A stretch of 63,490 nucleotides of DNA, the filler included, from Collodictyon triciliatum (lineage: Eukaryota): the NCBI GenBank assembly GCA_043381765.1. It is 6 parts of 6 records of this genome, joined end to end, with 100 filler letters (N's around TTAATTAATTAA, not from the genome) between each part and the next. Parts side by side here need not be neighbours in the genome. Positions count along the whole stretch, not along the records: positions 1 to 18,536 come from JBHJMP010001362.1; 5 more parts are not named here. One strand, written 5' to 3'. Shown in pieces: positions 12,180-51,290 of this stretch. Made by a program: the position numbers and the translations under genes. The notes beneath the pieces are model-generated. The model did no database searches, had not been told where the DNA came from, and saw only the letters and a list, made by a program, of their open reading frames with translations. The first letter of the stretch is position 1. Each line of letters begins with the position of its first letter.

Positions 12180-15100
12180 TTACGATACTCCATACATCTC
12201 GACTCCGGATCTGTGCTCCTTCTTCGGCCTTGATTTTCGGCGGTGGCGGATTAGTAAGCAGGAAAGCGCAGCAATGAATAATCCGCCGCCGGTGGCCGGT
12301 GCGAACCATACGTGTTTCTCTTGTGTATCCTGTATGAAAATAAAAGCCAGAATATCGTAGCTGTAAGAGACTATGACTTGAGGAACATACAGTTTTTTTT
12401 TATTAAGGTCGTGTATGACTTTTCCTGTTATCTATTTACTTTGATATTAATATTTGATGAAATTTTGTAAAGCCCCGAATTCTACTACGATTTCAAAATT
12501 TAATGACACAGAAGAGACAAAATAGCGAGGATACCTCGAGATGGTAATTAAATAAATAAAGGAAAATACAAAATGGAGAAAAGCAAGGAAAGATCACGTT
12601 AAAAAAAAAAGAAATGTTTTGAAAATTGTGTTATGCAAAGTGTGTTCATTCGCGTGTCTGTCCGCACAAAAATATTACCGAGAGCCACTTTCCAACGTCT
12701 TTGAAAAACTTCGCAGCAGAATTAACACCTCCAGAACCAGAATCATCCGAACTAGAATCTTTGGACACAGAAACATTCTCAATATATGCAGTTCGGCCCT
12801 GATTTTGTGTGCATAAATATCGAGGTCAAATTAGCGTAATCACGAACGATTATATAATACTGGTAAACTATATTACTGCATTATTTTTTTTGTATGATTA
12901 TTGTAGAGTATTCAGCAAATAAAGTAAAATAAAAAAAGCCAGGGTTCCACAATATTACTGTGATGTATGTGAGCGAATGGGTTCTATATAAATGCATGAA
13001 TACATATATACAAGGAAAGAAAAGACGAAAGGTGACATATATATACTAGCAAATAGTAAAGAATGGGAGTTAAAATGTCTTATGCATTAGTAATTCATTC
13101 TTCCTTCCTTTCTTTTTTTTTTTTTTTTAGAAAAAAAGAAAAAAGTGAAAGTTACCGATGTATCAGTCAAGACTATTGTTGTGGTGGAACCAAGACCAGA
13201 AGATGGACTTTTCGGAATTACAAAACTGGCTTCAGAGTCACTTGTTGTCGAGAAATCTACTGTCTGACCGCACCACATAGAGATGGTGGAAAGCTTGAAA
13301 AAGTTTGAGCCTGTAGAGACAAAATAAGAAGCTGTGAGTATCCCGTCGAGTGGGTCGCCCACGGCACAATACCTCGGATGGTCACAGTAGAACCCACAAA
13401 TATGGAGCCGCTTGATGGTTCGATGGAGTCCACTTGAGGCCATGTTGTGTCCTGTGAATAGATGTGCAAACCGGGTCAATCAAAGGCCGGCAATAACAGG
13501 TTTCATTCCATCACATGATGAGTATGATTATGAGTATTGTTATCGGTATCTATTTATTTAATATGAACACATGCAAGGTAAAATACTTTTATGTGTATCC
13601 ATATCACGAGCAGATTGTTATTCGTGTCAAGAATTTCAAATTGCAGATCAAAAGAGAAGAAAGAAGGCAAAACAAAAATAATTCTGAAAATCGTATATAA
13701 TAGGGAGATAGGTAAATAAAATAATCATAATAACAGAGAAATGAAAACATACAACTGGAGCGCCGTCGCATATAGGCTCATCGGGACAAAGGAATCTACC
13801 CTCGAAACAGAGTCCTTCTACAACATCTTTGTTAAAACCAGAGAGATTTGTGCAATCATGGTACACCTATAATTGATGAGTAATCGTAATTGGTATAAAA
13901 ACAAAAATAAATAGATCAATAAATAAACTAGATCAAGAATAAATTAGCGGTGATATTTTCACATCTTAAGAATGAATGCACCTGAATTCAATAATCTACA
14001 AGGGAAAATATGAATTTTTAAACAATGCACTTTTTTTTTTAAGGATAATAAAAATTGAGTCACCACAGCAGAATTACCCCTGCAACTTTAACATGGACAC
14101 TATTTGGGCCTTTGCAAGCAGTTTGGTAACAGGCACCTGTTTCGCCAACAGGGCTTATTCCTGTACGCAAGACAGTTCGTAGAGTGCATCTAGAGCCTTG
14201 GCCGTATGATTCACCCAGATAAGTGATTCCGTCATTCACTGAACTGCATGTCTGAGGGTCGAATGCATCGAATAAAGACAATAAAATGGTTTACAGAAAC
14301 AAAAGTGAAGACTTTTTGAAATATTGGTACTAATATATATGTATATATATTAATAATCTCGCGTGTTCATTCATGGTAAAAAAATGGGTATTTAGTTATT
14401 TTCTTTCAAAAAAAAAAGGCGTACATCTGCATACTCGCAGGAACAAGTAGAAGTCCACATAGGGCAATTATCCGCAAAACTGTCATATCCTAAAAGTAAC
14501 AATAATTTTAATAATAATTACAATAATGGTGATAAAAATAATATATATAGTCAACATAAAATATTCTTCGTTCTGTAGTTGAGGATTAAGCTCAGCAGAA
14601 AGACTATAATTTAAAAGAACCAAACGTAACACAACATGGACAGAAAAAAAAGAAGGAAAAAGTATTTTGATGAATAGTAGATAAAGATGAGAGTAAAAAC
14701 AAAAAAAAAAAAGAAGCAGAAAAGAACCTCCGTATGTCGGATCCGGTCCTATGCGGTACTGTGAAGGAACATTGTAAGAGAGTTTGGAAAGAGAACACTG
14801 CGCCTTTTGCCTCTTATCGATAAAGCAGCTATTACCCGAGCCCGTACAACGATAATTATTGGGCCAAAGCGTCCCCCACTCATCGCAGCGACTCTGGACG
14901 AAGTTACAGCCTTGGCCTTGACCAAAGACAAAATCCGTGTCTGCAAAAGTCGGATTTGGGGAGTACCACAGAGTATCTGTAAGCATGGCCACAGTGAAGG
15001 AGGATACAACGGGGTGCTTTGAGAGCGTGGATGACATGATTTCATTTGGAAAGAGGCGCTTCTCCCAGTGAGAGCCGGCCGAGCCGGAACCTCCACTGTC

Positions 15101-16456
15101 TTCCAAAGGGACACCCACAAGCGAGCCACATCCGTAGAAGGTGGCTGCATGATTGCGCACGTTGTCTGAGCCGAGACTGGTAACCGTGTAGGCAGTGGCG
15201 TATTGTGTGCTGGGATAGGACATGGGCGTGTCCATGGACGCAATCACGCCGCTGCTGAAGCCAAGCACATGAATCATTTCGTGGGCCATGACATAGGCCA
15301 TCTGCCGCTCATATCCGCTGCCTTGCACGACAGAATCCAGAATGTGCAGCCCGACATTCATGAGCCCCATGATCGGCCGGCCTGTGGATCCGTCATACAC
15401 ACACGAGGCTGCATAGGCTAGGACGCCCGATGGGGTTGGACGCCCGCCCACAAGGATGACGAGATCCACGTTTTGTGGGCCCCTGTTTGTACGATATCGG
15501 TTGGGAATGGACATGCCGACACAGGAGGCCAGTGCAGTCTGAATGAGCGACTGCAGCGGCACTGAGACTAGCAGAGCGTCCTGGATAATTTCAGCAGCCA
15601 TGGGGAAGAGGCGGCTCTCCAGGAGAGAGACTTTGTTTGATGTCACAGAGTTTGAGCCGGTGCATTCTACTATTGCAGTGTTTCCTCCTGTTGTTACAAC
15701 GACTGAGCCTGTGGCTGTAATCGTGGGTGAGATGAGATGAGATGAGATGAGATGAATTGAGATGAGATGAGATGATAAGATATGATATGAGATGATATGA
15801 TATGATATGATATGAGATGAGATGAGATGAGATGAGATGAGATGAGATGAGATGAGATGAGATGAGATGAGATGAGATGAGATGAGATGAGATGAGATGA
15901 GATGAGATGAGATGAGATAACTGAGATAATGCTTTGGTTACATAGTACATCAACGAACCTGTGTAACAGGTGGATGGGTCGTAGTTTGTGGAAGTCAAAG
16001 GTGTAGTATCGAAGTAGATTCGCAGCTTTGAAGGCGTTGCTTTCTGAGATGGTTGAGTTCATAAACAGATCAGTCATTATACCTCAACACATCTGCATGG
16101 GCAGTAGAGGTTCGATTAAGGGTCTTGCATAAGTAGCTGAACAGTAAGATATAGAGGGTACAAAAACTGGTTATCAACAATCAAGAGTCAGAGCTCTTTC
16201 TGTGCCACAATCAGAGTATATTACAAATCATGCTGCAGACCTTTGCGGTCTGCGACTTTGCCCAGCGGGATCGAACAGAGGGATCGCCCTTTGGGAACTC
16301 CAAAGCCGAGTGTATGCAAGTGTGAGACAACTCTGTCGCGTTGGACACTCTCTTTTGCACGGGGTGCGCGATCATTGGGGAGGCCAGAGCCGTCGATGCG
16401 AGGCCCAAGAGGAAAACCCCCGCGAGATAAGTAGCCCACGCGCGAGTTACTTTCAT
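12180..16456 (-). CDS. Leishmanolysin/GP63-family (peptidase M8) zinc metalloprotease, multi-exon, predicted type I membrane protein
   Basis: Signal peptide (MKVTRAWATYLAGVFLLGLASTALA), pro-peptide cysteine switch HTCIH, GVLAYA..C..GRPIMG, zinc motif HEMIHVLGFS, LEDSGGSGSAGSHWEKR, Met-turn EIMS and Cys-rich C-terminal exons. The last exon encodes a hydrophobic segment plus basic tail and ends TAA at 12180-12182. Confidence 0.92.
15728..15918. repeat. (GAGAT)n microsatellite in a leishmanolysin intron
   Basis: Directly visible. Confidence 0.95.
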
Positions 16457-17044
16457 GCGACCAAGGCGCGTCTATCTTCCTTGGGTGATAAATGAATGAA
16501 TTAAACAATCAATCAATAAGGAAATAAATAAGCAAATCAGTAAATAACTCAGTATATAACTCAATAAATAAATAGAAACGAAAGACACAATAATATGTAC
16601 CAAAAAAACAAGAAAAGAAAAGAAAAGAAAAGAAAAGAAAAGAAAAGAAAAGAAAAGAAAAGAAAAGAAAAGATCAGGAAAAAGAAAAAGAAAAGAAAAA
16701 GAATAAGGCCGCTGGGCGAAGCGCCCGAACAGGAATCGATGTTGGGTTTGAGTTTTCCGTCGCTGGTTTTGATGATCCGAGAAAGAAAAAAAGACTAATT
16801 CAACGATGAAAAGAGGAAAAAAGTGGGAAACGCACTTGTCCATCCATATATGGTATGATTACACATGTTCTGATAAGTCCGGTTTGGCCTTCTGCCGGAA
16901 AGGATGTGTTCTGTAAGGCCTATGACGCACGAGTAGACAAACGACAGGAAGGGCATCAAAGACAAAACAGGAGTATGATTTTGGAAGAAGGATAAAGTGA
17001 GACACCAAGGCGCCGGATACACACCGCACGATATTTTGTCAACA

Positions 17045-17200
17045 ATTCCCCTTTAAATGTAATTTCATGCCACTTTACATTTGTAACTAGGAGTATACCA
17101 TCCTTCGATGGGTTAACCTGTTCTGCTAGTATCCAAGGTCTCCCCACTTTTTTCACAAAGATTGTGTAGTGGTGAAGGCTTCCAGGAAAGACCCGACAGC
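17045..17200 (-). ncRNA. Putative Fanzor omega-RNA scaffold / element right end
   Basis: Cluster of stems overlapping the ORF 3' end: 17185-17193 with 17137-17145 (9 bp including G-U), 17168-17172 with 17144-17148, 17162-17166 with 17154-17158, 17126-17130 with 17086-17090, CCAUC-GAAG-GAUGG (17098-17111), and an 8-bp stem 17075-17082 with 17055-17062. The position matches known TnpB/Fanzor omega-RNAs. Confidence 0.5.
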
Positions 17201-18536
17201 ATATTGTTTTTTAAAGAAAGATGTATGCTTATTTTGAAGGATTAAAAGAACTTTCTTGAGTATATTTTTAGCGCTGTTAAAGTCCCTTGTCAAGAATACA
17301 GTTTGCTTGCTTTCTGAGCGATTGCATTCTTTACATATGAGACATATATACAGCTTTTTTGAATTACCTTTCAGTTTCATATACCCAGTTCTTTTTCGCA
17401 GTTGCAGCACATCTTGGAGGTTCTAAATTCATCTACATTAACTGTTTCAAAACGTTTGGATAGTATTTTTCGTAATCCTCTTCCGATTGTTGGCATAAAA
17501 TGTTTCATCTGACATTTTCTGCTCCAGTCTCCATACGCCAGTACAACGTCCTTGCCAAATGTCTTTTCGATTCGGTCCATAAGCAACTGTTCGCTTCTTT
17601 TTGTATTAACATAGTGTCTCCGTTTCATCTTTCGAAAAGTCATTTGTTCATAAAATATGGATAATTCTACCTGGCATCTTGATTTCATAGATACACATTT
17701 TCGAATTTTTTCATAATCGACCGTGCATGAATTATGTTTACTCGGTTTTGTCTCTAAATCGATTAAAGATATTCTTGATGTCTCAAACCGCTGATTCTCT
17801 TCAAAAGTCATGCGACCAAAAGAAACAGCACTTTGTAAACCTGTTGCCATATATATATCCGTGAAGCATCGTACTTTTCTTTTTTTCTTGCAAGAGTATT
17901 TTGTGATTTTTAAGATATTTGCTGTCATGTCTTGTTTGGTGTGCCGTGTAACGGAACTTCTTACCTGTCTCATCCACCATGTAAACAAAATTAAACTTGC
18001 CTGCATCAATCCAACTATTTTTTTTTTGTCGCTAATAAAGATAACTGCTCTTCGGAAAGTTCATCTATATATACATATTCTTGGATTTTTGTTTATATTT
18101 GATTCTTGAATTTGAAATGCGTTTCTTTTCAAACAATAATGACACCACCAAGCCTTCTGTTTGTATCGTGTATTTAAAATTGTAGTCTGATGAAAGACCC
18201 TTTTCTTCATTTCAAAGAACGTATCCCATAGTGTCTCTTTGTATCCTAATATAGTCTTCAGTAATAATGTTTTTCCAGATAATACTAATATATCTATCAA
18301 ACATGCAGCATCTAGAGTAATTTGACACGGTATATTGTTAGTTCTTATAGAGATTGGTTGAAACAGTTTGGTTCCAATGTCCTCAAAAATGCGATTCATG
18401 TAAATCAGACGTGGAATGTACTTATTTGGATTGACTTTGGCGTCATATTCTATATCTTTTACAATATCGCTGGGATGATACGATTCAGATGCATTGCAGC
18501 CCATTCTTCATATTTTCCGGTATTTCAAGATTCTTG
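17153..18536 (-). pseudogene. Fanzor1 (eukaryotic TnpB-like RNA-guided RuvC nuclease) relic, multiply frameshifted, 5' part lost in assembly gap
   Basis: Collinear motifs across shifted frames: KLFQPISIRTNNIPCQITLD; YNFKYTIQTEGLVVSLLF; YIDELSEEQL; RuvC-I IVG(I)DAGK (D 18005-18007) followed by FVYMVDETGKKFRYT; LAYGDWS; MKHFMPTIGRGLRKIL; RuvC-II VDEFRTSKMCCNC (E 17428-17430); zinc finger CKEC; RuvC-III TRDFNSAKNI (D 17282-17284). No introns seen. Confidence 0.88.
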
Positions 18537-18636
18537 NNNNNNNNNNNNNNNNNNNNNNNNNNNNNNNNNNNNNNNNNNNNTTAATTAATTAANNNNNNNN
18601 NNNNNNNNNNNNNNNNNNNNNNNNNNNNNNNNNNNN
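18537..18636. other. Artificial contig spacer N-TTAATTAATTAA-N (also at 37212, 51229, 59668 and 62171)
   Basis: Identical palindromic 12-mer with stop codons in all six frames, always embedded in N runs. Confidence 0.95.
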
Positions 18637-19620
18637 CAAAAACAAAAACAAAAACAAAAACAAAAACAAAAACAAAAACAAAAACAAAAACAAAAACAAA
18701 AACAAAAACAAAAACAAAAACAAAAACAAAACAACAAAACAACAAAATAAATTGCATGAACTTCTGAGTAAGTATACATTATCAAATGATTCAACTGAGA
18801 GGGCGAACATCTTACGTTTCATTATGGTCCTCACAACCCAAAATTTTGTAGGGAGTATTCAAGCCGTCATTTTCGTGCTGGAAAGATTTGAAAGGAGGTT
18901 AATAATGCTTATGATATGTTTTAATGTGATTTTTTTTTGTAATATTATGAAATGAACCATAAGCAAGACTGAATAATAAATACTTAAAATTTAATAATAA
19001 TACTAATAATCATAATAACCACACCTTTATGGGAAACAATTGGCGATGTGCATCTATTAAAAAGTACACAAAAATATTATTGAAGATGCAAATGATTTTA
19101 GATTTCTAATGAGTTACACATATGTTATTAAAAAAAAACCGCGAAAAGAATTACATAAATGGTTAGAATAGATTCTTGAGTTGTGATAGACGACAAAAAA
19201 TCATCATGGTAATTCGAAATAAACCCTCGGATGGCATCTGTAGGTACTGATTTGAGCGTGAAATATGATGGTCAAGTTTCGAGAGAATGGCCAACTGCTT
19301 CCCCTCTTTAGTTCTTGAATCACCATTTAGTGCATTGTTCGCTTTTGTGGTAGTCTGTTTCCGACTGAGCGTTGAAAAGCATAGAAAAAAGGTGTGGTAA
19401 TCAGAAACGTGTGGCTATTTTTTTAATAAGAGATATGTAATTACAATATCCCAAGGAAAAAGTTTAAGAATAACGATGTACAATTCATATAAAATATGTT
19501 TTCCTTTGAACGTAAATGCGGTATAATGAACTCACGAGTTGGTGGGAGATGTGGAGTTCTCGTCCTGCTGGAAATAAAAATGGGCACAACCCAAAGCGTA
19601 TATCAAATGCAAATAGGTGG

Positions 19621-20601
19621 TTAAAAGGAGGTGAATTTCGGGTTTAATTTATTATTAAAATTTTTTTTGACATGCAAAATATGGTGGAGGGTATGAAATG
19701 AAAAAAAAAAGAAGACAAAGAAGAGGTAGATGTGGTGCCTTTGTACCGGAGTCACTTGGCTCATGGAGAGGCCACTGGGAGACCAGTAAGGAAACGCCGC
19801 GGCAGGCTGTTTCGGGGCGTGGGAGGCGGTGACGAGGGCGAGCTGCTGCTGGAGGTGCAGGATGTGTTGGTGCTGGAGCTGGATGAGGTGCTGGTGCCTG
19901 TTGAGGCTGTCCATCATCGCCTGCTGTTGCGAGCGAAGGGTGTGGAGCAGAGCGTGGTGGGAGTCCTGCTGGCGCTCGAGCCTCCGCATGTGCGCAAAGG
20001 CCCCGGCGCTGTCGAGCTCTGCGGCGTCCGGATCGGGCAGCCTGCGGGCGGGTGGGCCGTCCAGCGAGGGGGCGCGCCGCTTTGCCTTGCGCGGCGGATG
20101 CAGGCCGGGGGTGGAGACGTCAGCGACGGCTGTGGCTGTGGCTGTGGCTGCGGTTGTGGTTGTGGCTGCAGCTGTGGTTGTGGCTGTGGCGGTGTTCGCG
20201 GCGTCCGCAGAGGTCCAGGCAGGGTGCAGCAGGCTGTGGGCCGCCGTCGGGCTCAGCGCCACCAGCGGCAAGGCGCCTGCATCCGGCGCGGCCCGTGTCT
20301 CGTGCAGCGTGCGGCCAAAGAGCTCTGCCGGCCCCTCGTTCGGGTCGCGCGCGGCAAAGTCGGCACCCGCCTCGCACCCGCTTTCGCGCAGCAGCTCGCG
20401 CCACAGATCGGGCCGCGGTGCGTGAGGCGGCGGGCAGGGGCGCGGGTCCTTGTCGGGTGCGGGTCTGCGGGTGGCGTTCGGCCCGTCGCCACACTCTGCG
20501 GGCGCAGGCAGGCCGCCCTTCGTCGCCGCCTCCTCCATCTGCAGCGGGTGGCCCAGGAACGAGCCTGCCCCCGCAGAGTGTGCCGGCTGCTCGGGCTCCA
20601 T
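19621..20601 (-). CDS. GC-rich low-complexity protein (Ala/Thr/Pro tracts, Gln/His coiled coil), function unknown; probably spliced near 19755 to further exons
   Basis: 326-aa ORF with GC-rich coding-like composition and a heptad segment (LERQQDSHHALLHTLRSQQQAMMDSLNRHQHLIQLQ). A GT donor after ...MSQ is followed by AT-rich intron-like sequence. Confidence 0.55.
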   Translation of the reverse strand: MEPEQPAHSAGAGSFLGHPLQMEEAATKGGLPAPAECGDGPNATRRPAPDKDPRPCPPPHAPRPDLWRELLRESGCEAGADFAARDPNEGPAELFGRTLHETRAAPDAGALPLVALSPTAAHSLLHPAWTSADAANTATATTTAAATTTTAATATATAVADVSTPGLHPPRKAKRRAPSLDGPPARRLPDPDAAELDSAGAFAHMRRLERQQDSHHALLHTLRSQQQAMMDSLNRHQHLIQLQHQHILHLQQQLALVTASHAPKQPAAAFPYWSPSGLSMSQVTPVQRHHIYLFFVFFFFSFHTLHHILHVKKNFNNKLNPKFTSF

Positions 20602-20856
20602 CGCTGGCTCGGCGCGTCTGCGTTGGGGAGGGGGGGCGGGTTAGTCGCGGGGTCTTCGTCTGGGCCGCACGGGGTGATCGCGGTGAGTGATCGCTGTGAT
20701 GTGATGTGATGTCTATTCCTGCGTCAGTCTCTTCCACATTCGGGAAGGGTGCAGAAGGGACGGAGTGATCTGATTGTGATCTGATTGTGATTGTGTTTGT
20801 GTTTGTGTTTGTGTTGCTTTCGTATTTTATTGTCCTTCTTACTGTGTCTGCAAATG

Positions 20857-23065
20857 TCACGGCCCCGAGTCGTACCCATACCTCCGCGCCAGCGACCGTA
20901 TGGCATCGGCGATGCTCGGGTCCACCTCGTAAAGGTCATCCCAGGTCATTTGCTGCGGCCTTGCTCTGCTTCGGCCTTGCTGGATGGGCGATGCAGAGCT
21001 GGTGCGCCCGCTTGTGGCCACGCCAGTACCCAGGCGTCTGGTTTCCATCAATTTGCCCTTATTTGCAAGAGATGGAGTCCATCCAAGGATACGAACCAAT
21101 TTGTTTGGCTGGAAGTTTTCGATTTGCATTCGGTACTGTGATATCATCTCTACATGCCGATTCCAACGCAGCCAATATTCCATGGCCATTTTCATCCGCT
21201 CATGCACCGGCACACCACTGTAGTCACTTTTGCTCCACTCAGCGATATGAGACCCCTTTCGAGGTAGCGATAATTTGATGTATTTTGAAGCAAAATACCA
21301 TGAAGCTGCATCTGCCCGAGGCTGTTGCGTGAGATTGCCATGGGAGCAGAAACAAGAGCTCAAACTAGATATCGCAGCGAGCGGGTTTCGGACAAGATGG
21401 ATGATGGGGCGGAATTCCACACCCAGAAATGTTTGGTGGAGAGTCGTAATGTTTTTTGATGAAAATATAGGGTTGCTCCCCATGTATCTGCGCATAAGCT
21501 TTTCACACACTTTTGTTGGTGCTAAAGACGAGTTTGTTCGTGTGGTGATGCCAGAAAAGTCTGCTGTCCGAACGGCGTAGCTAAGAGGTTCTTCAAAAGG
21601 ATACTTTCTCGACCGGTGGGCGTACAACCACGATACAGCGCCCTGGGAACCAATCGACTCATGTTGAACATCAATTCCATGATGTAAACGCATGTCTAGA
21701 GCAACAGCGTGTGTCCCACTCCTTCCGCACCCTGTAACTAGCGGCAAGCGCAAAAGTCGACCCACAAACATGGCTGAGCGAATTGTTTTTGATAGAATTG
21801 TGGCGTCCTCGCTTTGCTTGACAGACCAATATTCGAATCCTTTGCACGCGCAGAGGCTTTGCAAACTGTATTTTTGGTCTCTTTGGTTCTTGTGGTCTCC
21901 TGATAGGTTTACTCGCTGAATAATAGCAATATTGTGTCCTTGTGGGATAACTGGTAGGAATGTAAAATCGGCATAAGAAGAAACCACGATAATCATGGAA
22001 TAGAATGGATAGCTTGATACCAATAAAGACGTAATCTTATTCCAAGCGTCATGAGCGTTTCCTAGTGCGTGGTACACAAAACGATGGGGACTTTCTGGTT
22101 GACGAGAGATCCACTTATCGTTTAAGTGACGCATGTGATCGATTATTTTTGAGGGCGTGGATGAGACAAATAGAATATGGGTTTCATGTTCACCAGTTTG
22201 ATGTGCAGATCGGTGGTGATTGGTATTGTGTTGGGGTTGTCGCAATGGAGCCAATGATGATAATTTTTTGCACAGCTTGACACCAAGCCATGCAAAGCTT
22301 ACGAGCGGAGACTGTCTTTGCTGATGAAGCCAGTTTTCAAGAGGAGATGAATTGTTTTCCAGAGAGTTTAGAACATTCCAGTCTGAGAGACGTTCGGGTT
22401 GCCACGAGACAAAAAATAGGCGGTTGATACAATATTTTGAGTCAGGAAGAAGACGTTGAATAATGACTGTTGGATACATTTGATGCAGCCATGATATATC
22501 GGCATGGATGGGAATGAGAAGAGTCAAGTTACGTTGAAGATTTCTACCGAGAACACCTGCGGCATAGATTATGGTCTGAATGGTGATTTTGTCTCGAGAT
22601 CTTTCCCTATGACCGGCCCAGCCAAGAGAATCAGCAAAGAGGGCTCTATTTAGAAAGTAATCACAGTTTCCTAGACGTCTAGGAGCAGAACCTTGGTTGG
22701 TTGCTTGCAAAACACTTTCAGCAGATACTTGGAGAGAATCAAAGATGGAAATCTGGGGATGAGTGTCGAAGGTAAAAACGATACCATTGTTATTTGTAAG
22801 GAAAGACGCATTTCGCAGGATGTTGAGATGCCTGGTGAAGTTTGAATGATTCAGGAACGAGTCGTATAAGGCTTGCTCGTGGGGGGATGTTTTGTAGATG
22901 TCCGGGTCAAGAGAATGACCCAGAATCTTCAGTGGGCGACGATCTCTAACAGAGAGGCGTTTTAAAGAAGAGAGAGTATGATTGCTGAACATGTCGAATA
23001 GTTGCTGTGTGTAGTAAGTCTCTTTGTTTGGCATACTGTCCGCTGTTGGTGGCGGGGATGTGTGC
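20857..23065 (-). CDS. Intronless protein with C-terminal PAPS-dependent sulfotransferase-like domain (5' end in or beyond gap)
   Basis: Stop-free frame of over 700 codons. 5'-PSB loop LVTGCGRSGTHAVA, then DVQHE...GAVSW, 3'-PB motif IIHLVRNPLAAISS, EYWLRWN and terminal LARRYGY. Confidence 0.7.
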
Positions 23066-23691
23066 NNNNNNNNNNNNNNNNNNNNNNNNNNNNNNNNNNN
23101 NNNNNNNNNNNNNNNNNNNNNNNNNNNNNNNNNNNNNNNNNNNNNNNNNNNNNNNNNNNNNNNNNNNNNNNNNNNNNNNNNNNNNNNNNNNNNNNNNNNN
23201 NNNNNNNNNNNNNNNNNNNNNNNNNNNNNNNNNNNNNNNNNNNNNNNNNNNNNNNNNNNNNNNNNNNNNNNNNNNNNNNNNNNNNNNNNNNNNNNNNNNN
23301 NNNNNNNNNNNNNNNNNNNNNNNNNNNNNNNNNNNNNNNNNNNNNNNNNNNNNNNNNNNNNNNNNNNNNNNNNNNNNNNNNNNNNNNNNNNNNNNNNNNN
23401 NNNNNNNNNNNNNNNNNNNNNNNNNNNNNNNNNNNNNNNNNNNNNNNNNNNNNNNNNNNNNNNNNNNNNNNNNNNNNNNNNNGTATACTTTGTTTGCTGT
23501 TTGCCGGCTACGAGTGCAGGTTTTCTACCACGCTTTGCCGCTCGCAACACCCGGACGCGCGCAGCTGTTTGGACTGACCGGACGCCTTTTGGGTGTTGAC
23601 GAACATGCGGCGAAGTGTGTGGGGTGCTGCTTGATTTATTTCAGAAATAGGGACGAAAGTCAGGGGGGAAGGCAGGGGATGCAGGGCGGGG

Positions 23692-25481
23692 TCAGTACTC
23701 AAAGTGCTCGTCGGAGGGCGCGTCCCAGGCGGGGTAACCGGAGGCGACCGAGGCGGGCGGGCGGGGATATGGCTCGCGGGTGGCGCTCGGGGCGATGCTC
23801 GGGGCGATGCTCGGGGCGTAGCTTTGGTGGCCGGAGGAGGGCGGGTGCGGGAGGTGGATGAGGGCAGGGGCAGGGGCGAAGGCGCGGGTGGTGGGCTGTG
23901 GCTGGGACAGGAACTGCAGCTGTGGCTGTGGCTGTGGCTGTGGCTGCGGCTGTGGCTGCGGCTGCGGCAGGAGCTGTGTGTGTGGCAGGGGATTGGCGGG
24001 GGCGGCAGCAAGGGCCGGGGGCAGGGGCGTGCGGATGCGGACGGTCTGGGCATCCCAGGCGGTGTCGGGCAGCTCGACGGTCTTCTCGTTGAACTCGACC
24101 AGCTTGGTCTCGACGGTGCGGGGCTGCATGACGACCTCGCGCAGGGTGACGGTGCGGGGCACAAAGACGGTCTCCTCGATCTCGACGGCGCGCTGGACCA
24201 TCTGCACAAAGGGCAGCTCGATCTCCTCCTCCACAAGGACGGTCTCGGGCACCTGGATCTGGCGCGGCACCAGGGTGGTGAGGGCCAGGTCCAGGGTGCG
24301 GGGCTGCAGCACAAGCTCGTCGACCTCGATGGTCTGGCGCAGGCGCGAGACGACGGGCACGTCCACGTCCTTGGTGACCAGGGCCGTCTCGCTGACGTCG
24401 TGCTCCCTGCGCACCATGCGCGTGACGTTGTCGGTCACCGTCTGCTTGCGCACCACCGTCTGCGCCTCCTGGATCACCTGCCGCTCCTGCGCAAGCACCG
24501 GCTCGCCCCGCTCGTTCAGCCGCGTCACGGGCACAAGCACCTCCCGCGCAACCTGCACCACCTCCGGCACGTCCACCGTCCGCGTCACCGCCACCGCCAC
24601 GGGCTCCTCCGTCACCCGCTTCCCCTGCGTCCGCACCACCTCCTGCACGCTCTTGCGCGTCGCCTGCGACACGTACCGCACAAACTCCTTCTCGCTCTTG
24701 GTCGCCACCGCCTCCTCCACCGTCACGCTGCGCGTCTCCTCCACCGGCTCCTCGATCGTCCGCGTCACCATCTTTGTCACGGGGCGCTTGATCTGTGTGC
24801 GGGGGGTGTCAGGTCAGGTCAGGTCAGGTCAGGTCATCTTGAAGGCAAGAATAAAAGAATAGCAATCATGTCATGTCAGGTCATCTTGAAGGCAAGAATA
24901 AAAGAATAGCAATCATGTCATGTCAGGTCATCTTGAAGGCAAGAATAAAAGAATAGCAATCATGTCATGTCAGGTCATCTTGAAGGCAAGAATAAAAGAA
25001 TAGCAATCATGTCATGTCAGGTCATCTTGAAGGCAAGAATAAAAGAATAGCAATCATGCCATGTCATGTCAGGTGCGCCCACCTTCTGCTTGACGTGCGT
25101 GATCACAGGCTCCTCGATGTACTCGATGCGCGTGCGCTTCTCCGGCACCTCGATGACCCGGGTCACGTTCACGACCACGGGGTACTCCACGCGGTTGCTG
25201 TACGTGCGCAACACAGGCTCCTGCTGCACAACCTCCGACGTCCCCGCAATCGGCACCTCGATCGTGTGCACCGTGTAGTGTGCTGGCTCCTCGCCCGCGC
25301 CCACGCTCGCCACAGCCACAGCCACAGGCGCCGCCCCGCTGCCCGCCCCGTACCCGCCCATGTTCATGCTCGTGCCTGTGCCTATGCCTATGCCTGCTGC
25401 CGACGACGACGACGCCGACGACGTTACCAGTGTGCGTGCGCCGCTGTACATGTATGGCGGTTGCGCCTCGTTCATCTGCAT
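23692..25481 (-). CDS. Articulin/alveolin/epiplasmin-like cortical cytoskeleton protein (V/E/P/R/T-rich repeats), 2 exons
   Basis: Exon 1 25481-25083 and exon 2 24792-23692 join in frame (VITHVKQK|IKRPVTK) across GT-AG intron 24793-25082. Repeated alternating Val/charged motifs: TIEVPI, RVEYPV, VIEVPE, TIEEPV, TVDVPE, EVLVPV, DVDVPV, QIQVPE. Gln/Pro-rich tail. Confidence 0.75.
24828..25062. repeat. 47-bp minisatellite x5 inside the articulin-like intron
   Basis: Unit GTCAGGTCATCTTGAAGGCAAGAATAAAAGAATAGCAATCATGTCAT starting at 24828, 24875, 24922, 24969 and 25016, preceded by (GTCAG)n. Confidence 0.95.
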
Positions 25482-25512
25482 TGTGGGGGTGCTGCGCTGC
25501 CTCAGTGCCTTG

Positions 25513-25790
<278 letters not shown>

Positions 25791-26301
25791 CCAAGAACAC
25801 AGACCTTAGTCACAGACTCTCGCACACACACTGCGCCCCAGCAAACTGCGGCCAACGAAATGATCGACATTGGTATGATGCGGGTTTCGAGTGTTTGAAT
25901 CTGATTGTGTCCGCATTTGGTTATTCTATTGATTTTATTCTTATCTATGCTTTTTAAGGATATTGAGTGAGAATATTTCACTCTTTCCTTCTCTGGATGA
26001 TTGGCTACCAATATCCACACGACCGTATAAAAATAAAACCCAATATCCAAACGGCTACGCGGCCTTGCCCATATAAACATGCCTGTCAAGCCGCTCGCAA
26101 GCAACAATCAACCACTATACTACACAAGCGAGATTGCGCCGCGGGCACATGTTACGTCGGGGAGGTCTAAGACACCAGAGCTCCGAAAAACGCCATAACT
26201 TGACCAGCTACACAACCCGATCCCAAACAGCTTAAACACCATCCAACCTTCGTTCTAGGTCCTCACTTCGTCCAAGTTGCAACCCCCCGTACAAACCGCC
26301 C

Positions 26302-35805: not shown

Positions 35806-37268
35806 TTCCCTACAAAGAAAAAAAAAAGCTAGGCAATACAGGCAAAAAAACGTCTGAGAAAAAAAAGGAAAAGGACGATGAGGCAAAAGACGGTGGCTGC
35901 GAAATGCAACACACAATGGTTCAGTGGAGAGTCAAGACAAGAATTAAGCTTCGATTCGGTCTTTCAAACTCTCGTTCCGACCGACGTGTCTAACAAGCAC
36001 TGCTGCCTGTTGCTGGTTCTTCAGGATCGGGCGACATATAGATTTGATTGATTGATTCCTCTCTTTCCATATTCGTCGACTTGAGAGGCTATTATTTGTG
36101 GAAAATGTATATTATGAACATATATGATTGATTACGCGATATTGTAAGGCGTTGATTACGATGTAAGGAAATGGATTATAATTATACCTACAAATACTCT
36201 CGCTAATACAGCTGTACACTTTAGTTGAGTCCCGATGGTTAAAAGCCATTCCACACGCTTGATTTTATAATTTTCAAATTTTGTGCAGGATGATAGATGT
36301 TGGCTGGTTCGCTAGCATCGCTTGCATGGACGCTACTTGGTGGCCGGGTGGCGGAAAAGTAGTCGGTAATCAGTAATTGCATCCTGTGCTTTGGTCTGTA
36401 GGCTGGGTCTTGTGCTTGCATGAGAGAGACAAGGCGAGGATGAATATCTTTACACAGCATATAACTGCCATTCCCTAGTCTTCACCAAGAAATCTCCCGC
36501 CCGCGCCTGTTATGCAGCCGTCAGTATTCCTCGTGATGCCCATATTGATATGGAATGCCTCGCCGTCCTCAATCCCAAGGAAACACTATTGCATCTACCA
36601 ATCGAAGAACCAGCCAACACTCATACAAAAACCAGAATAAGGAAAGAAAAAAAGAAATAGAAAAATGGGAGGTTTAGTAGCGTTGTGGATGCGCTTCCTC
36701 CCTTATATAACGAATCTCAATCCACCGAATAAGCTGTATTTCTATGAATCTTCAGTCTGTCCAGATCAAAGCGATTTCTTCGATCAAGCAGAATCACAAA
36801 ATATCAAACAGGAAATCGCAGCAACTCACAAAGCAGGAAAGCCAGAGACAAAACAGACTGAATCGCTGCGTATCTGCGTTCAAAGCCAGCGTGTTGTGAA
36901 GAGCCCCAAATAACAGCAGCTTAAATACTCTCTTTATTGTGCCGTGAAATACAATGGAGAAGAAACTGTTGTCGACCGCGTGGCCAACCTTGGGCTTTCC
37001 TGGCGGCTGTTCGGGGCGATCGCTGATAGCACACCGTGTCCTTTGAGGATCTCGTCGAAATCACGGAAAAGAGTAAGAATTGAATTTTTCCATTTCCTTT
37101 TCCTTTTCCTTTTCCTTTTCCTTTTCGTCTTTTTCTTTTCTTTTTCTTTTTTCCTTATTCTTTTCCTNNNNNNNNNNNNNNNNNNNNNNNNNNNNNNNNN
37201 NNNNNNNNNNNTTAATTAATTAANNNNNNNNNNNNNNNNNNNNNNNNNNNNNNNNNNNNNNNNNNNNA

Positions 37269-40200
37269 ATGTTTGAATTGACACCAACCTCTTATCCAAT
37301 TTACAAGAAAGATTCTCTATACAACACGAATAAAAACTATGATTGGGGTGCATTCCGCTCTCTAGCGGAGAAAATGAAATCCAGCTCCAAACCTAAGCTG
37401 TTTATTGTTTCATTTTCAGAGCCTGGAATATACGTTTTTGAGGACTCATCTAATCCATCGAAAGAAACAATCATATCAGTGATGCAAACTGGACAGCAAT
37501 GCCCCACCGATTCTCGAATCAACCCCTTGACATCTTCGACTTTGACGAAATCAGGCGTCTCCAAAAACTCCAAACCATTGCAATCACCAGACTGGTCATT
37601 GGTTGGGTTATTAGTAGGAATACCGATGGGCGCCGTTCTGCTCTCATTAGCATCAATCAAGGCATGGAAGTCCATGAAACCGACTGAAAAGGCTGGGCAA
37701 TACTCTAAATACCGAGAGGATGCTCTAGAGAAGGACTTTGGTCAGTATATATCAAAAGGATCTCAACAACATCGTTTGAAACAGTATCAGAAATCAGCTG
37801 AGAGTTTGGATACCGAGGCTTTTGAAAACGACTTCTGGGATTATGAGCATCAAGTTGATCTGGAAGGATTTAGTGTTCAAGGGTTTAACGACAAGCTTTC
37901 GGAGCAAACAGAAAAAGTATTTGCTGAGGTATCAAAACGCTCTGGCCAAGTGAGGCATATGTATGATAGTATTTCCCAGCAAGCCGAACAACTCAAATCC
38001 ATCCTTTCTTCCAAAATGGATACCCTTACACAACATGCCGATCTTGTTCTGGGAAATGATAACATAGGTGGGAAGCTCTATGACATCGGGAGAGAAATCG
38101 AACGTAGACGCGCCATAGCCGAAAGTTTCGGAATTATCCTTCATGTATCTAGCCAAACAATTACTCTTGACATGAGCTACCGGTCGTCGTTTGAGAGACT
38201 GGAAAATGAGGTATATTCCAAAGTGCATGATATCATACTTCGACTTATTCCAGAATTCCATGCAAACATAGAACAACGGTCCAATATTCCAGAGATATTG
38301 CAGGAGATGGTCGCTGATATGGAGGCAAACATCAACTTTCTCTTCGTAGAGCGAGACAAGGAATGTCGCAGGCGGTGCATATGGCCATCTGTCAATGAAC
38401 CGTTGGGCTGTCCGTTGGTTGACCCGGAAACAGGTCGTGATGTATCTCATGAATATTTATTCGATATGAAAGGGCACCTCCAGGAAATTCCAGGATTAAT
38501 AGAAAAAAATCGCAAAAGCGGGCTATACCTCCCATCTGTTGGGTCCTTGATGAGAATGCCAAGCGGTGAGGTATATCAAATACCGATTGGCTCTATGTGC
38601 ATCCACCCCGATACTGGTCGCGTTATACCGATAGAAGGTTCTGTTTGCGTCGACCTGGGAACTGGAAGACTTATTTACACCCACAATGTCGAACCTGAGT
38701 ATGAACCCATTGGAGAAGTGGTCCCTCTCTTCATCAACGTGATAAACCCATCCACCGGGCGAATGGTCGACACGCCCTTCAAAAAGTATGCCAATAAGTT
38801 CCCATTTCCTTCCTCGATTATTGACCCCAGCTCTGGCCAACTGGTTCCAATTTTGGGTGTCGCCTTGGACCCATTCAACGGTTCATTGGTCCCTATTGGA
38901 GGAACGATGCTTGACCCTGTGACAACACTCCTTCGGCCAATTGTTCCGGGTTACATATATCAGGACTCAAGCTCTCTATCCATTCTTCCTATCGCATCCG
39001 TTTTACTGGATTTGGTTACTGGGAAAGCCATTCCAGTCGGTGGGCAAACGACAGACCCAAGAACAAAGCAATCTGCCTATATTACTCTTGGAGCACACTT
39101 CACAGAAAACATGAGTGGAAAGGAGGTTCCTGTCGCTGGGTGTTTCCTAGATCCGATGCTCAACCAGACTGGCCCAATGTACGGCGGTGAAGGGATGCTC
39201 TTGGACAATCTTGAGATGGATGCTGTTGCATCCTTTGTCACAGTGCTTGACGAATGGAAGGAGCTCATAAAGCAAGTTGTTCAAGAATTTATAATTTCGA
39301 CTGCAGAGTACAATAGCAGAATGGAGGATGTCTCAGCAACAATCGATTCATCCTCTTTGGGTTGGATTGTATCTGAATATAAGAGAAAGATCGCGAGAAT
39401 GGGAACAGATTTTGACTCTAGCAACAGAAAATTTGAAACCGAGGTCCGATCAAAGAGACAAAGAATTGACAACTTGCGAAGAAGAAATAAAGAAAAGCGC
39501 ACTAGATGGTACCAGAGGCTGAGAAATCTGGAGATTCAGAACAAGAAACTTTACGAAACTGGTGGCATAGAAGGCTATATCAAAGATACCCTCGCAAACA
39601 CCAATATACCAATTATGATTGGAGAGTATGTGAAGGACAGAAACACTGGTTTGATGTGCCCTATCCTCGGGGTACATATCGAAACTGAAACTGAAAGAGT
39701 TATCCCACTAGCTGGAACCATGAACGACCCATTAACGGGCGAAACGGTACCGATCATTTTAGGAAACAAAATGCGTGATATGGAGAGTGGAAAAATCGTC
39801 TTTATTACTGGCGCGTACTTTGAGGAGGAGACTGGGCGCGTCCGCCCCAAATCTGACCAATCATCTATTGAGAGGGACACCTGGAGAGAGCAATTGTCGT
39901 TGGTCGAGAAGGAGTTATTGTCTCGCGATAATTTCAATCAAAATTTTCGTATGACGTTAGAAAGCATGTCATACCTAGAACCGAATATCATGCAACAGAT
40001 GCAAATAATTGCTACGCAACCAAATCCTGAGGCTTTGAAGAAGCTGGGAGAAATGGAAAAGCAATACCATATATGGAAAGAACAGCTTATAAATCTCGAC
40101 TTGCATGAATTCAATGAGAGACCTAAAGATCATCATTCAAAAATGATGAAATATGAAATTCATCACGACCTCACCTCCAAAGATCGTCTCTTAAAGTCAA

Positions 40201-43200
40201 GCGCCGAGGAAGTTATTCTTGGAGCTGGTAATCTTTTGAAATTCATTCAAGAAATGCAAAGAAAACTGGAATCATGGAACATTACTTACAGTACAAAGAT
40301 GAAATCGGCCTCTGGAGATGATGCAGCTGTCCACATGATACAAGAGGAAGCTGACGGCATGAGTAGGTCTCTGCAGGAAGAAATTAAGACCCGATTCCCG
40401 ACATTAATTGCAAATATAAAAAAGAAGACCATGAGGTATATTATGACAAACGATGAGGTGAGCGGCCATGGAAACATCATTAAACGAAATATTACATCAC
40501 AATTGGCAACATTAGCCCCAGATATTCATAGCGAGGAGAACCGTGCAAAAAATTCCACCATTCCTCCCGAATTACAATTGCTGGTCAACGAGCTCATTTC
40601 AGTTTTATCTTCTCAACCTGAAACGATGTTCCTGTCAGAGGCGAGAGATAGGATTTCGACTGGGAAAGAAGAGGCCATCAAACTGAAAAGTAATGAAGGC
40701 CAGTTAGAGGAACTTGAAGGCAGAGAATGGATATGGCAGATGAAATCGGCAGCTAGTCAGATTCCGACTGTATCTCAAGAGGATCGATCCATAACTGAAC
40801 AAGTTATTCAGGAGCAAATAGAAAAGGAAGAGAAGGAAGAGGTGGAGAAATTTCAGCAACAAATGAAAGAAATCAAGGAACAGCAGATCGCGGAGAAGGA
40901 GAGAGAGATATTGGCAAAATATGGTGTTGAAAACGCACCTGAGGAGCAGCAAGCTGTGGTTCTTGCTGAACACAAAGATGAAATACATCAACTGGAAAAA
41001 ACACTAGACATGGAGAAGGTGCGCCAAGAGGACCATATGAGGGAAAGACTGACATCGACCAGGCCTAGAAGAGTAAAATCAAAGCAAGAACGAATAGAGC
41101 AGGAGCTCGGAACAAAAAAGACTATCATATCTCAAAGTGGGAAAACAAACGATGCAAAGGTTCCAGAAATAGCGAATTTGGTGAATACTATGCAAGTGAG
41201 CGGCTTGATTGTGCAAGGGACTCTCCAAATACAAGATCAAATCCAGAAAGAGGAGAGTAGTGAATTAGAAAAACTGCGCAAACAACTGGAGGACAAAAAA
41301 GAAAGCACCATTCAAAAAATGAGGGAAGAGCTGGACCAAAAACTCAGAAAAGAAGCCGAGCTGGTTGAACATGAGCGTGAGAAGCTTGTTTTGTCCTACG
41401 AAAGATCAATTAACCAAATGATGGCCCAGTATGACGATGAGGCTCGACGCAAAGGTGCAATAATTCAAGCGGATTTAAAGAACAAGAAGGATCTCTTGGT
41501 CCATAAGGTAGCAAGGTCAGCCATCCAACATACTTTGCAGACACAAATAGCAAAAATGGAAGGAAGTATGATTCAAGCTTTACCAGCTCTCCAAAGCCAG
41601 CAAATCGAGAATCTAACTCAAGACGTTGATACAAAAAGAAAACAGATGGAATCTCGAATTGTAGAACAGTTAAAGATGGAGGAGGAGGCCGCGATGGAGG
41701 CTATACGATCCAAAATCAAGCGTTCCAAGGAAAAGGCTGTATCTTCTCTAAAGTCTAGTGCAATAAAAAAATTACAAGAGGTCGAAAAGATTGCCGAAAA
41801 ATCACCTTCTGAACCCAGCATTGAAATTGAAATGGGCAAGCAAAAAGAAAAAGAAAAAATCATGCAAGAGTCAAAGAACGAGTTGCAGGCTCTTGAGAAG
41901 GAACTAGAGAAAGAAAGACAGAAGCAGGAGCAGTTTTTGAGGGAAAGAATGGAAACTAGGATGAGAAAAAGACTAGCAAACGCTGCCAGCAATGCAGTAG
42001 ATGAGGTATTGATGACCAAGGTATCCAACGAAGAGGAATTGGCCAAGAAAAAGGAAGAAATGAAATTGAAACTGGAGCGCCAGCTTAAAGATGAGGAAGA
42101 GGCCGAACTGCAAGTGCTTAAAAAACAGATAGAAGAGCAGAAAAAAGAGCTTTTGGAGAAAAGGAAGAAAGAATTAATTGAACAGTATGAGTCACAGCAG
42201 ATCCAAGAACTTCAAGATTTGGAGGCTGAAATGATTCCAGCTGCTGCAACACTTCATATGCAAGAGACTTCCAAAAAGTTTCCTTGGATTATGAAAAAAA
42301 GATTGAGGATTTCACGGACAAGTTGAAAGAAGCAACCAGAGAAAAAATAGCCATGGTTCAAGAGAGCTTGTATAAGAAGTCTATTGAACTGATGGAAGCA
42401 GAGACAAAATATGACAACCTGGTTAATGATGCTGAGGCAAAGTTCCAAGAGGGGATTAATGCTCTGATTGATATCAACGGCATTGTGAAGAGGAAGCTAA
42501 GTGGTACCTTTGGCAAAATAGCATCTCTCTTTGGCGGGAAGGATAGAGATGAGCGCGAAGATGGTAGCCGAATTTCCGAAATCGTAGGCAATATCATTCA
42601 AACAATATCTGGTGAATTCGAAGAAAAGAAGATTCAAGCTCAAGAAATACGACAGCAATTAATTCAAGAAAAAGAAAGAATCAAGGCTACTGCAGGTGCT
42701 GATATGATGGAACAGATTATTTCTACCGTAGTGGATGACCCAAACACGATGTTGGATTTGGTTCATAAGGCTCAAGAAAAACTTGCAAATCTCGAAAAAC
42801 AAGAGATGTTGGAGACTTTGGAGTTGTTGAAGAAAAAGGCTAAAGAAGAAGTCATCGACAGAGTGAAGAAATTCATAGAGTCGCTTATCCACAGCCCCGC
42901 ACCAGTACTGAAGATTGAACTCCAAATTATCCGTGATATCAGAAAATTGAATGAAGAAAAATTCACAGATATTTCCAAAGCCGATGGTGTTGTCCGCGAA
43001 AAGATTCATGAGAAGATGGAGGAGCTGAAGCGTAGCCTTGTTGATAAATTATCTGAAGCAGACACGGAAGAACAAAGGAGGAAGATCATCGAGCAGCAAA
43101 TGAGGGATATTCAATCAGTATTAGATTCGCACGAAATGGAGAAAGGAATCTACCTGAAGAAATTAGATGAAAAGTACCAAGAACGGAGAAAGAAACTTAT

Positions 43201-49200: not shown

Positions 49201-49740
49201 CATTTCAGGGCACCATCCCTTTGACCGTCTTGAAGAATCGAAAGAGCATGCAAAGATATCTTATCAACAAATTTTAGAGAGCCAGATGAAAGAATATAAC
49301 GACCGATTGGATAGACTTTATGCAGAATATATTAATGTCACTAAGCTGGCGTCTCAGTTAAATATTTCTCTCCGAAAGAAAGACACTGAGTTGAGGAGAG
49401 AATTAAAGGCACTTGACGAGTTGGCAGAAGGCACTGAAGAGCATCGCATCCAGCAAACAAAGGTTGGCGCTCTCACTCTGGATGTGAAGAGATTAAGAGA
49501 CAAGAGCGAATTCATCAAGTCAGAATTGGTGAGTTTTTTTTTCTCTTTATTCTCATCACTTTTCTTTCTTTTTTCCCTCTCATTTAAAGGCTATGTCGGT
49601 TTGAATCAATCTCGCTCGCATTATTTTGAGAAAACTCTTGACAAAAAGAAAAAATTGAAATGTAGTCTCGTTTGAGTCTGAGTATGAGCAAGTTGAAACA
49701 AGTCATCGACGAAAAAGCCAGAGCTATTGCTGCGTTGTGA
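37269..49740 (+). CDS. Giant (>4,100 aa in view) single-pass membrane protein with DPxTG repeats and long coiled coil; 5'-truncated by gap; one frameshift near 42230-42326
   Basis: ORFs 37269-42326 and 42284-49675 overlap in different frames and share the same coiled-coil repeat. TM segment WSLVGLLVGIPMGAVLLSLASI. Terminal intron 49529-49665, then last exon ending TGA at 49740. The motifs YPIYKKDSLYNTNKNYDWGAFR and PPNNYHRNAFRNSYYY...LFIRQQR...HAISHI recall uncharacterised giant cysteine-repeat (GCC2/GCC3-type) membrane proteins; this is from recall, not a search. Confidence 0.75.
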
Positions 49741-50922: not shown

Positions 50923-51290
50923 CTACGCAATTAGAAGATATCGTTGTGTTTTAATGGTATTTAATTTTACATTAATAAAGCCAATATGTTTTATTTGTAA
51001 GCAATTGTGGTGTGTGAATAGTGCGGATAGGTTTTTCAGATTTGTTTGTGTTTCAGATTTGTTTGTGGTTTTTGTTTTTGTTTTTGTTTTTTGTTCTTTT
51101 TTTGTTTTTTTGTTTTTTTGTTTTTTTGTTTTTTGTTTTTGTTTTTTGTTCTTTTTTTGTTTTTTTTGTTTTTTTTTGTTTTTTNNNNNNNNNNNNNNNN
51201 NNNNNNNNNNNNNNNNNNNNNNNNNNNNTTAATTAATTAANNNNNNNNNNNNNNNNNNNNNNNNNNNNNNNNNNNNNNNNNNNNAAAAAA

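Follow-up and report, generated by a model that had tools for sequence, protein, structure and literature searches.

The DNA analysed here, called the window throughout, is a 63,490-nucleotide (63-kb) stretch from the eukaryote Collodictyon triciliatum. It consists of separate contigs joined by five linkers of the form N44-TTAATTAATTAA-N44, with stops in all six frames. Adjacency across the linkers is meaningless because the contigs were joined artificially. Two plain N gaps, at 23066-23482 and 58135-58464, are ordinary scaffold gaps. The remnant of a Fanzor1 gene lies on the minus strand and reaches the end of its contig at 18536, where an artificial linker follows (18537-18636) with unrelated DNA beyond it. 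The N-terminal ~190 residues, corresponding to the 5' third of the gene, are missing through assembly loss at the contig end and have not necessarily been deleted. The coordinates of the features described below are collected in Table 1.

A homologue search with the longest piece of the relic as query returned 20 longer proteins of 494-861 residues. The best of these, P0001, is an intact metagenomic protein of 648 residues from a 2.6-kb metagenomic contig. Frameshift-aware alignment to P0001 placed the homologue encoded in the window at 17165-18512 on the minus strand, with 272 of the 444 aligned residues identical (61%) between P0001 residues 193-642 and window positions 18512-17165. A tblastn search of the window with P0001 gave three collinear segments in three frames (joint E 5e-110), and the pieces of the relic are stop-to-stop frames between 17153 and 18507 on the minus strand. 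The alignment to P0001 is collinear without extra DNA, so that no intron is needed and the preliminary description of the sequence as intronless holds. When read through with an X at each break, the relic yielded 452 residues with 7 X and no stops, and this read-through matched the family profile with a score of 466 bits (E 9.3e-144) over profile positions 196-606 of 632. The N terminus of P0001 opens with a run of basic residues. A nuclear localisation signal is reported at the N terminus of ~60% of Fanzors (PMC10530073).

The relic and a leishmanolysin-like (Peptidase_M8) open frame are on one contig, as there is no N between them. The best relatives of this frame are 35% identical to it, and dictyostelid, Entamoeba and EukProt matches are 26-31% identical. 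The contig is AT-rich and full of microsatellites, and together with its peptidase gene this indicates that the source is a eukaryote. One (GAGAT)n / (GATAT)n microsatellite, at 15698-15967, translates as LISSH repeats; it lies where the Peptidase_M8 frame has its upstream end and is probably non-coding or intronic. Elsewhere in the window two open frames lie end to end on the plus strand of one contig, at 37224-42326 (1700 aa) and 42230-49675 (2481 aa). In both, A strongly outnumbers T (AT skew up to 0.45) and Pfam gave no match; together they may form one gene, more than 4000 codons long, for a low-complexity charged protein. A GC-rich block at 19600-26000, not on the contig of the relic, reaches 68% GC in a window that is otherwise 30-40% GC; it has long overlapping open frames on both strands, the sole match being a weak one to a ZIP transporter (24996-25898, E 4e-4). 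No second Fanzor1 copy and no end fragments were found in the 63-kb window. Rfam gave no match within 16000-18536 at E ≤ 1, nor in the whole window at the gathering score.

Table 1. Coordinates of the features of the remnant and its surroundings, and of the sequences compared with it
Feature	Position	Strand	Remarks
Fanzor1 pseudogene remnant	17156..18512	-	Equals P0001 residues 193-642; three frames, seven breaks, 0 in-frame stops
TIQTEG	18152-18169	-	Motif placed by script
VSLLF	18131-18145	-	Motif placed by script
YIDELSEEQL	18042-18071	-	Motif placed by script
RuvC-I motif WIDAGK	17996-18013	-	D aligns to SpuFz1 D383
GDWS, vestigial canonical RuvC-II position	17521-17532	-	G replaces TnpB glutamate
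MKHFMPTIGRGLR	17470-17508	-	Motif placed by script
VDEFRTSK, relocated catalytic glutamate	17413-17436	-	Aligns to SpuFz1 E541; 34 residues after the G of GDWS
Zinc-finger region	17324-17409	-	CCNC at 17398-17409; frame break near 17384; CLIC/CKEC (CLICKEC) at 17324-17344
RuvC-III motif TRDFNSA	17270-17290	-	D aligns to SpuFz1 D606
Stop codon of window copy	17153-17155	-	In other-run copies the stop is 16 codons earlier, 17199-17201
Probable 3' non-coding tail and inferred right element end	17098..17152	-	Ends ...GGATGG, then TA 17096-17097
Frame breaks in relic	near 18481, 18185, 18084, 18026, 17877, 17860, 17384	-	From frameshift-aware alignment to P0001
Compensating indels in other copies	+T 17383/4; +T 17879; -1 at 18020; +TCTT 18187		Copies from other runs
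Contigs matching relic stretch, per run	X1 129; X2 9; X3 222; X4 3		Logan contigs
Leishmanolysin-like open frame (Peptidase_M8)	14483..15937	-	E 1.9e-47, one stretch, unbroken; ~1.2 kb from relic
Artificial linkers	18537-18636, 37168-37267, 51185-51284, 59624-59723, 62127-62226	.	N44-TTAATTAATTAA-N44
Complete ~3.33-kb mariner-type elements	L003:4616-7949, L083:5404-8719, L081:174-3503, L087:5486-8818		Divergent DDE_3 and Fanzor1; giant-virus-sized contigs

Fanzor1 identity of the remnant

A profile built from 19 aligned homologues (length 632) was compared with solved structures and matched PpFz1 of Parasitella parasitica (E 3.8e-72), SpuFz1 of Spizellomyces punctatus (E 5.1e-69, spanning profile positions 3-607) and GtFz1 of Guillardia theta (E 2.3e-46). 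The matches at E ≤ 1e-40 were exclusively Fanzor1 chains, the remaining ones being three chance matches with E values of 0.4-0.7, and no TnpB, Fanzor2 or Cas12 chain appeared in the PDB profile search at E ≤ 1. By the family profile the likeness extends over full-length Fanzor1 (REC/WED/RuvC/NUC), the window covering the part noted above. Pfam searches with the separate pieces gave sub-threshold matches only (OrfB_IS605, E 0.012; Cas12f1-like_TNB, E 0.12, for the zinc-finger region), and of the 20 homologues all but one carry the precomputed family PF26935.1.

The metal-binding residues of SpuFz1 are given as D383, N385, E541 and D606 by Saito et al. (PMC10432273). With chain 8gkh_P renumbered by an offset of 394 for the MBP fusion, D383, E541 and D606 fell on the aspartate of DPxK, the glutamate of DE(F/Y)(R/K)TS and the aspartate of RD(L/M)N in the family. 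Their aligned counterparts in the relic, the aspartate of IDAG, the glutamate of DEFRTS and the aspartate of TRDFN, are all kept. The matches to the three structures and these aligned residues together support the preliminary assignment as a Fanzor1 relic with all three RuvC acidic residues. A single motif had been misread: the sequence given as GIDAG has the catalytic aspartate, but its first residue is W and not G. The GDWS motif, the two CxxC pairs (CCNC and CLICKEC) and the upstream TIQTEG and VSLLF were all found as described, on the minus strand. Fanzor1 is reported to have a rearranged RuvC-II in which G or P takes the place of the canonical glutamate, with an alternative one ~45 residues downstream (Jiang et al., PMC10530073). 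This arrangement is present in the relic, where GDWS is followed 34 residues on by the glutamate of DEF. The CxxC...CxxC zinc finger between RuvC-II and RuvC-III is also present, with a frame break between the pairs.

Frame breaks, decay and related copies

Frameshift-aware alignment required seven breaks, where about five had been proposed; those at 17877 and 17860 fall within an insert of low conservation and might count as a single break. Six read like the loss of one base and the seventh, in the T10 run, like the gain of one. This T10 homopolymer, at 18018-18027, had been singled out in the preliminary description and is real. Two of the seven breaks are in homopolymers (T10 and T7) and five are elsewhere, and one is a 4-nt difference from other copies. 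The relic belongs to the family by descent; with seven breaks, an open frame able to make a Fanzor1 protein is absent. A literature search found no paper on Fanzor1 with the term "pseudogene".

Logan contigs of four sequencing runs contained swarms of short contigs matching the relic stretch at 85-99% identity. Some of these copies lack the frame breaks of the window copy and mostly keep the conserved residues; others are broken too, for example X3 record 17, which has 8 gaps. A compensating indel was present in some other copy at four or more of the seven break sites. The earlier expectation of intact copies elsewhere is made likely by these swarms, some members of which are without the window's breaks. 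A 151-nt contig (X2 record 14) matched 17952-18101 with no mismatch and one gap and carried the window-private letters at 17954, 18072 and 18092. Over 17022-17240, a range that spans the 3' edge of the element, a 219-nt contig (X4 record 25) was identical to the window. Judging from these contigs, the window copy and its flank junction exist outside the window's own assembly, unless the X2 or the X4 run is the source sample. Many diverged copies of this family occur in freshwater metagenomes and in one or more named organisms. When sequencing runs were searched by sampled window words, no run with the source reads was found, the best share being 0.11, and no RNA run was among those listed as sharing words.

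It is very improbable that the relic is a collapsed or chimeric consensus, made by the assembler from several repeat copies and matching no existing copy exactly. Such a consensus would be favoured by a contig that ends inside the element and by a multi-copy family whose members are 85-99% identical, but the two other-run contigs reproduce 150 nt (with one gap) and 219 nt of the window copy, private letters included; either run could be the source sample.

Indel errors in the draft assembly of a gene that is intact in the organism would account for several of the features described above. The window comes from a draft and consists of contigs strung together, with N gaps, two of the breaks are in homopolymers, there is no in-frame stop, as indel errors would also give, and the catalytic residues are kept. 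In addition, the single gap between X2 record 14 and the window falls in a stretch that holds two break sites. Against this explanation stand the five breaks outside homopolymers and the 4-nt difference. The open frames of 2481, 1700, 570 and 484 residues elsewhere in the window served as an internal control and are unbroken, as is the adjoining Peptidase_M8 gene. Because the long frames of the window are unbroken, five indels per kb is not a general rate of error in the assembly.

Indel errors would also leave unexplained the private non-synonymous changes at conserved positions. Of the columns that are invariant in the family alignment and covered by the relic, 21 of 23 are kept, as are 27 of 36 nearly invariant ones. 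The 40 best-supported of 363 differences from other-run copies were tested, a selection that favours window-private sites, and 39 of them fell in aligned codons, 31 being non-synonymous and 8 synonymous. At 18 of the 31 non-synonymous sites the other copies keep the P0001 residue, and at none does the window keep it. These 18 sites include W491R, Y466C and L450P in the window and also L381, D313 and T261. We consider indel error improbable as the explanation of the frame breaks. The damage looks like real decay and not like sequencing error, given the unbroken neighbouring open frames, the few homopolymer breaks, the changed conserved columns and the private amino-acid changes. The 18-versus-0 direction and the near-neutral ratio show, even in a biased sample, a copy that drifted after disuse. 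With its frameshifts and many private amino-acid changes the window copy cannot make the protein.

Relatives, carrier element and origin

A scan of IMG/VR found 251 relatives in viral contigs. Of the 80 kept, 31 had "GVMAG" in the contig name, and several contigs were longer than 100 kb. We take this label to denote giant-virus metagenome-assembled genomes, and these numbers bear out the giant-virus flavour noted earlier in the sequence. A search of JGI metagenomes with an alignment as query found 517 relatives, the best being 53-54% identical, and no close relative was found there with the window's own peptide patterns. All context-bearing relatives found were in viral or large metagenomic contigs.

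One recurrent neighbour was present within 2.5 kb of the Fanzor gene among 160 relatives' loci, namely a DDE_3 transposase with HTH domains (E 3.2e-15). It was represented by 40 ORFs in 37 of the 160 loci, and 37 of these ORFs lay upstream on the opposite strand, divergent from the Fanzor gene. The element is ~3.33 kb long, L003 and L087 being 95.8% identical over 3334 bp. Inverted matches of 53 nt (L003 versus L083) and 33 nt (L083 versus L081) were observed at the element ends, and in the relatives the ends are ~30-nt inverted repeats that are mostly flanked by TA. The element of the relatives is a Tc1/mariner (IS630-like) transposon carrying Fanzor1. Complete elements from separate contigs share 74-96% identity, suggestive of recent mobility. 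Several viral contigs have two Fanzor genes within a few kb (L087:982-2742 with L087:1-948; L077, L080 and L108), and the second Fanzor of L087 is highly diverged, with an end branch of 3.0 in the tree and a separate DDE_3 transposase beside it.

At the 3' end of the relic, cover by related copies falls to zero within 17072-17133. In the viral relatives the Fanzor stop is ~50 nt from the right end, which reads ...GGTG and is followed by TA. By analogy with these viral ends, and with cover by related copies stopping in that range, the right end of the window element may be at ~17098. Blastn comparison of the window element with the relatives' loci showed similarity confined to the coding parts, and a search of the window by nhmmer with a profile of viral 3' ends gave no match at the relic, the best match (E 3.8) lying elsewhere. 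Among the relatives, the last 63-81 nt had common start and end motifs in 67 of 145 loci. A short hairpin at the inner edge of the repeat had a mean of 5.49 bp against 4.15 ± 0.13 bp in shuffled sequences; none of 200 shuffles reached the observed value. Arm changes occur on both sides of the hairpin, and in an alignment of 53 viral 3' ends (for example L149:8673-8738) the 5' arm varies with a C/G variant of the 3' arm in the inverted repeat. RNAalifold gave no supported structure for the MAFFT alignment of the 53 ends. No omega-RNA signal was found in the window, where positions 17000-17330 did not fold better than shuffles (z = 0.23). The 3'-terminal hairpin region of the viral elements is a candidate for the omega-RNA scaffold of the viral clade.

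The family is very large: 7991 cluster representatives match at E ≤ 1e-3, of which 1693 reach E ≤ 1e-30. A FastTree phylogeny was calculated from 55 rows, which remained of 150 collected after removal of 95 that were at least 85% identical to a kept row. In this tree the window pairs with P0001 (support 100, stem 0.62), and the pair is sister, with support 87, to a group of the giant-virus contigs L004 and L002 with proteins P0002-P0015. The tree gives no direction of transfer, as it is unrooted. The window sequence is ~60% identical to P0001 and at most 44% identical to every other member compared, and an insert of ~35 residues after RuvC-I is common to the window and P0001. An uncharacterised Fanzor family had been proposed for this host. 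The distance beyond P0001 supports a distinct subclade, but one that lies within a large family of known kind.

The placement beside giant-virus contigs, and the restriction of all context-bearing relatives to viral or large metagenomic contigs, could be read to mean that the stretch is itself a giant-virus genome, an integrated giant-virus region or viral contamination, and not a transposon copy in a host chromosome. There is a precedent in the element HMa-1 of a Hydra contig, judged viral from its neighbours by Bao and Jurka (PMC3627910). We think this origin unlikely for the window. No other window ORF matched any ORF of the 160 relatives' loci, which are a small set of viral flanks. The contig is rich in microsatellites, and the leishmanolysin-like gene that it carries is separated from the relic by 1.2 kb free of N. 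The hundreds of diverged fragments present in a single small run from a named organism point to a dispersed repeat.

The best explanation, to which we assign a probability of roughly 85%, is that the locus holds a dead Fanzor1 gene copy, most likely brought in by a Tc1/mariner (IS630-like) transposon of a type abundant in giant-virus genomes. In working relatives, the DDE transposase would move the element between TA sites, and Fanzor1 with an RNA from the 3' end of the element would cut DNA that matches the guide, a role taken from the literature. At the window locus six to seven frameshifts and numerous private amino-acid changes have accumulated in the nuclease gene, and its 5' third and any transposase gene lie beyond the contig end at 18536. 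We infer from the relatives that the window copy arrived in a mariner-type element; the nuclease and guide mechanism would apply to its intact kin.

A more tentative proposal, which we regard as possible and somewhat less than even in likelihood, is that the window and P0001 represent a host-resident offshoot of the giant-virus mariner-Fanzor1 transposons. This offshoot would have reached dozens of copies in a eukaryote living in fresh water, would still include intact and possibly active members, and would differ from the viral elements in its 3' end and consequently in its guide-RNA scaffold. If so, the lineage of the window and P0001 would allow the passage of an RNA-guided nuclease transposon from virus to host to be traced.

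Comparison with known systems

Fanzors are eukaryotic RNA-guided nucleases, of interest for their natural role and for their movement between giant viruses and hosts. A dead copy adds little alone; it points to a eukaryote, seemingly common in fresh water, in which a distinct Fanzor1 subclade has many copies. The nearest relatives of this subclade with known context are transposons of giant viruses. Should intact members be obtained from that organism, they could provide material for the study of virus-to-host spread and of new guide-RNA scaffolds.

Fanzor1-bearing Tc1/mariner elements, among them PGv-1 of Phaeocystis globosa virus 12T and PUl-1, were described in 2013 by Bao and Jurka (PMC3627910), and Jiang et al. 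list Tc1/mariner among the Fanzor1 associations (PMC10530073). Compared by their description in the former paper, PGv-1 and PUl-1 are like the relatives of the window gene in having a mariner DDE transposase together with Fanzor1, inverted ends and TA flanks. The same paper reports that viral and cellular Fanzor copies are intermingled and proposes viruses as spreaders of Fanzor, and such intermingling is also seen among the relatives of the window gene. In contrast to PGv-1 and PUl-1, the window has just the 3' two-thirds of the nuclease gene, in broken form, any transposase, left end and TA duplication lying beyond the contig end at 18536.

SpuFz1 (PDB 8GKH), PpFz1 (9CF0) and GtFz1 (9CER) have the same D/E/D positions, the GDWS and (D/N)E(F/Y)(R/K)TS motifs and the zinc finger, and they match the profile over its full length. 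According to Saito et al. (2023, PMC10432273), these proteins are omega-RNA-guided DNA endonucleases. They are distant from the window gene, with scores of 162-247 bits against more than 450 bits within its own family, and the ~35-residue insert after RuvC-I is peculiar to the window and P0001. The SpuFz1 elements, according to that paper, have no transposase between their repeats.

TnpB (IS200/IS605 and IS607), Fanzor2 and Cas12 share with the window gene a split RuvC nuclease and a zinc finger. The window gene differs from them in that the canonical RuvC-II glutamate is replaced, by the G of GDWS, and relocated, and in that its REC part is long. The relic is a further member of a Fanzor1 family whose relatives are mariner-borne; the element type, its carrier and the connection with viruses have all been documented in the literature since 2013.
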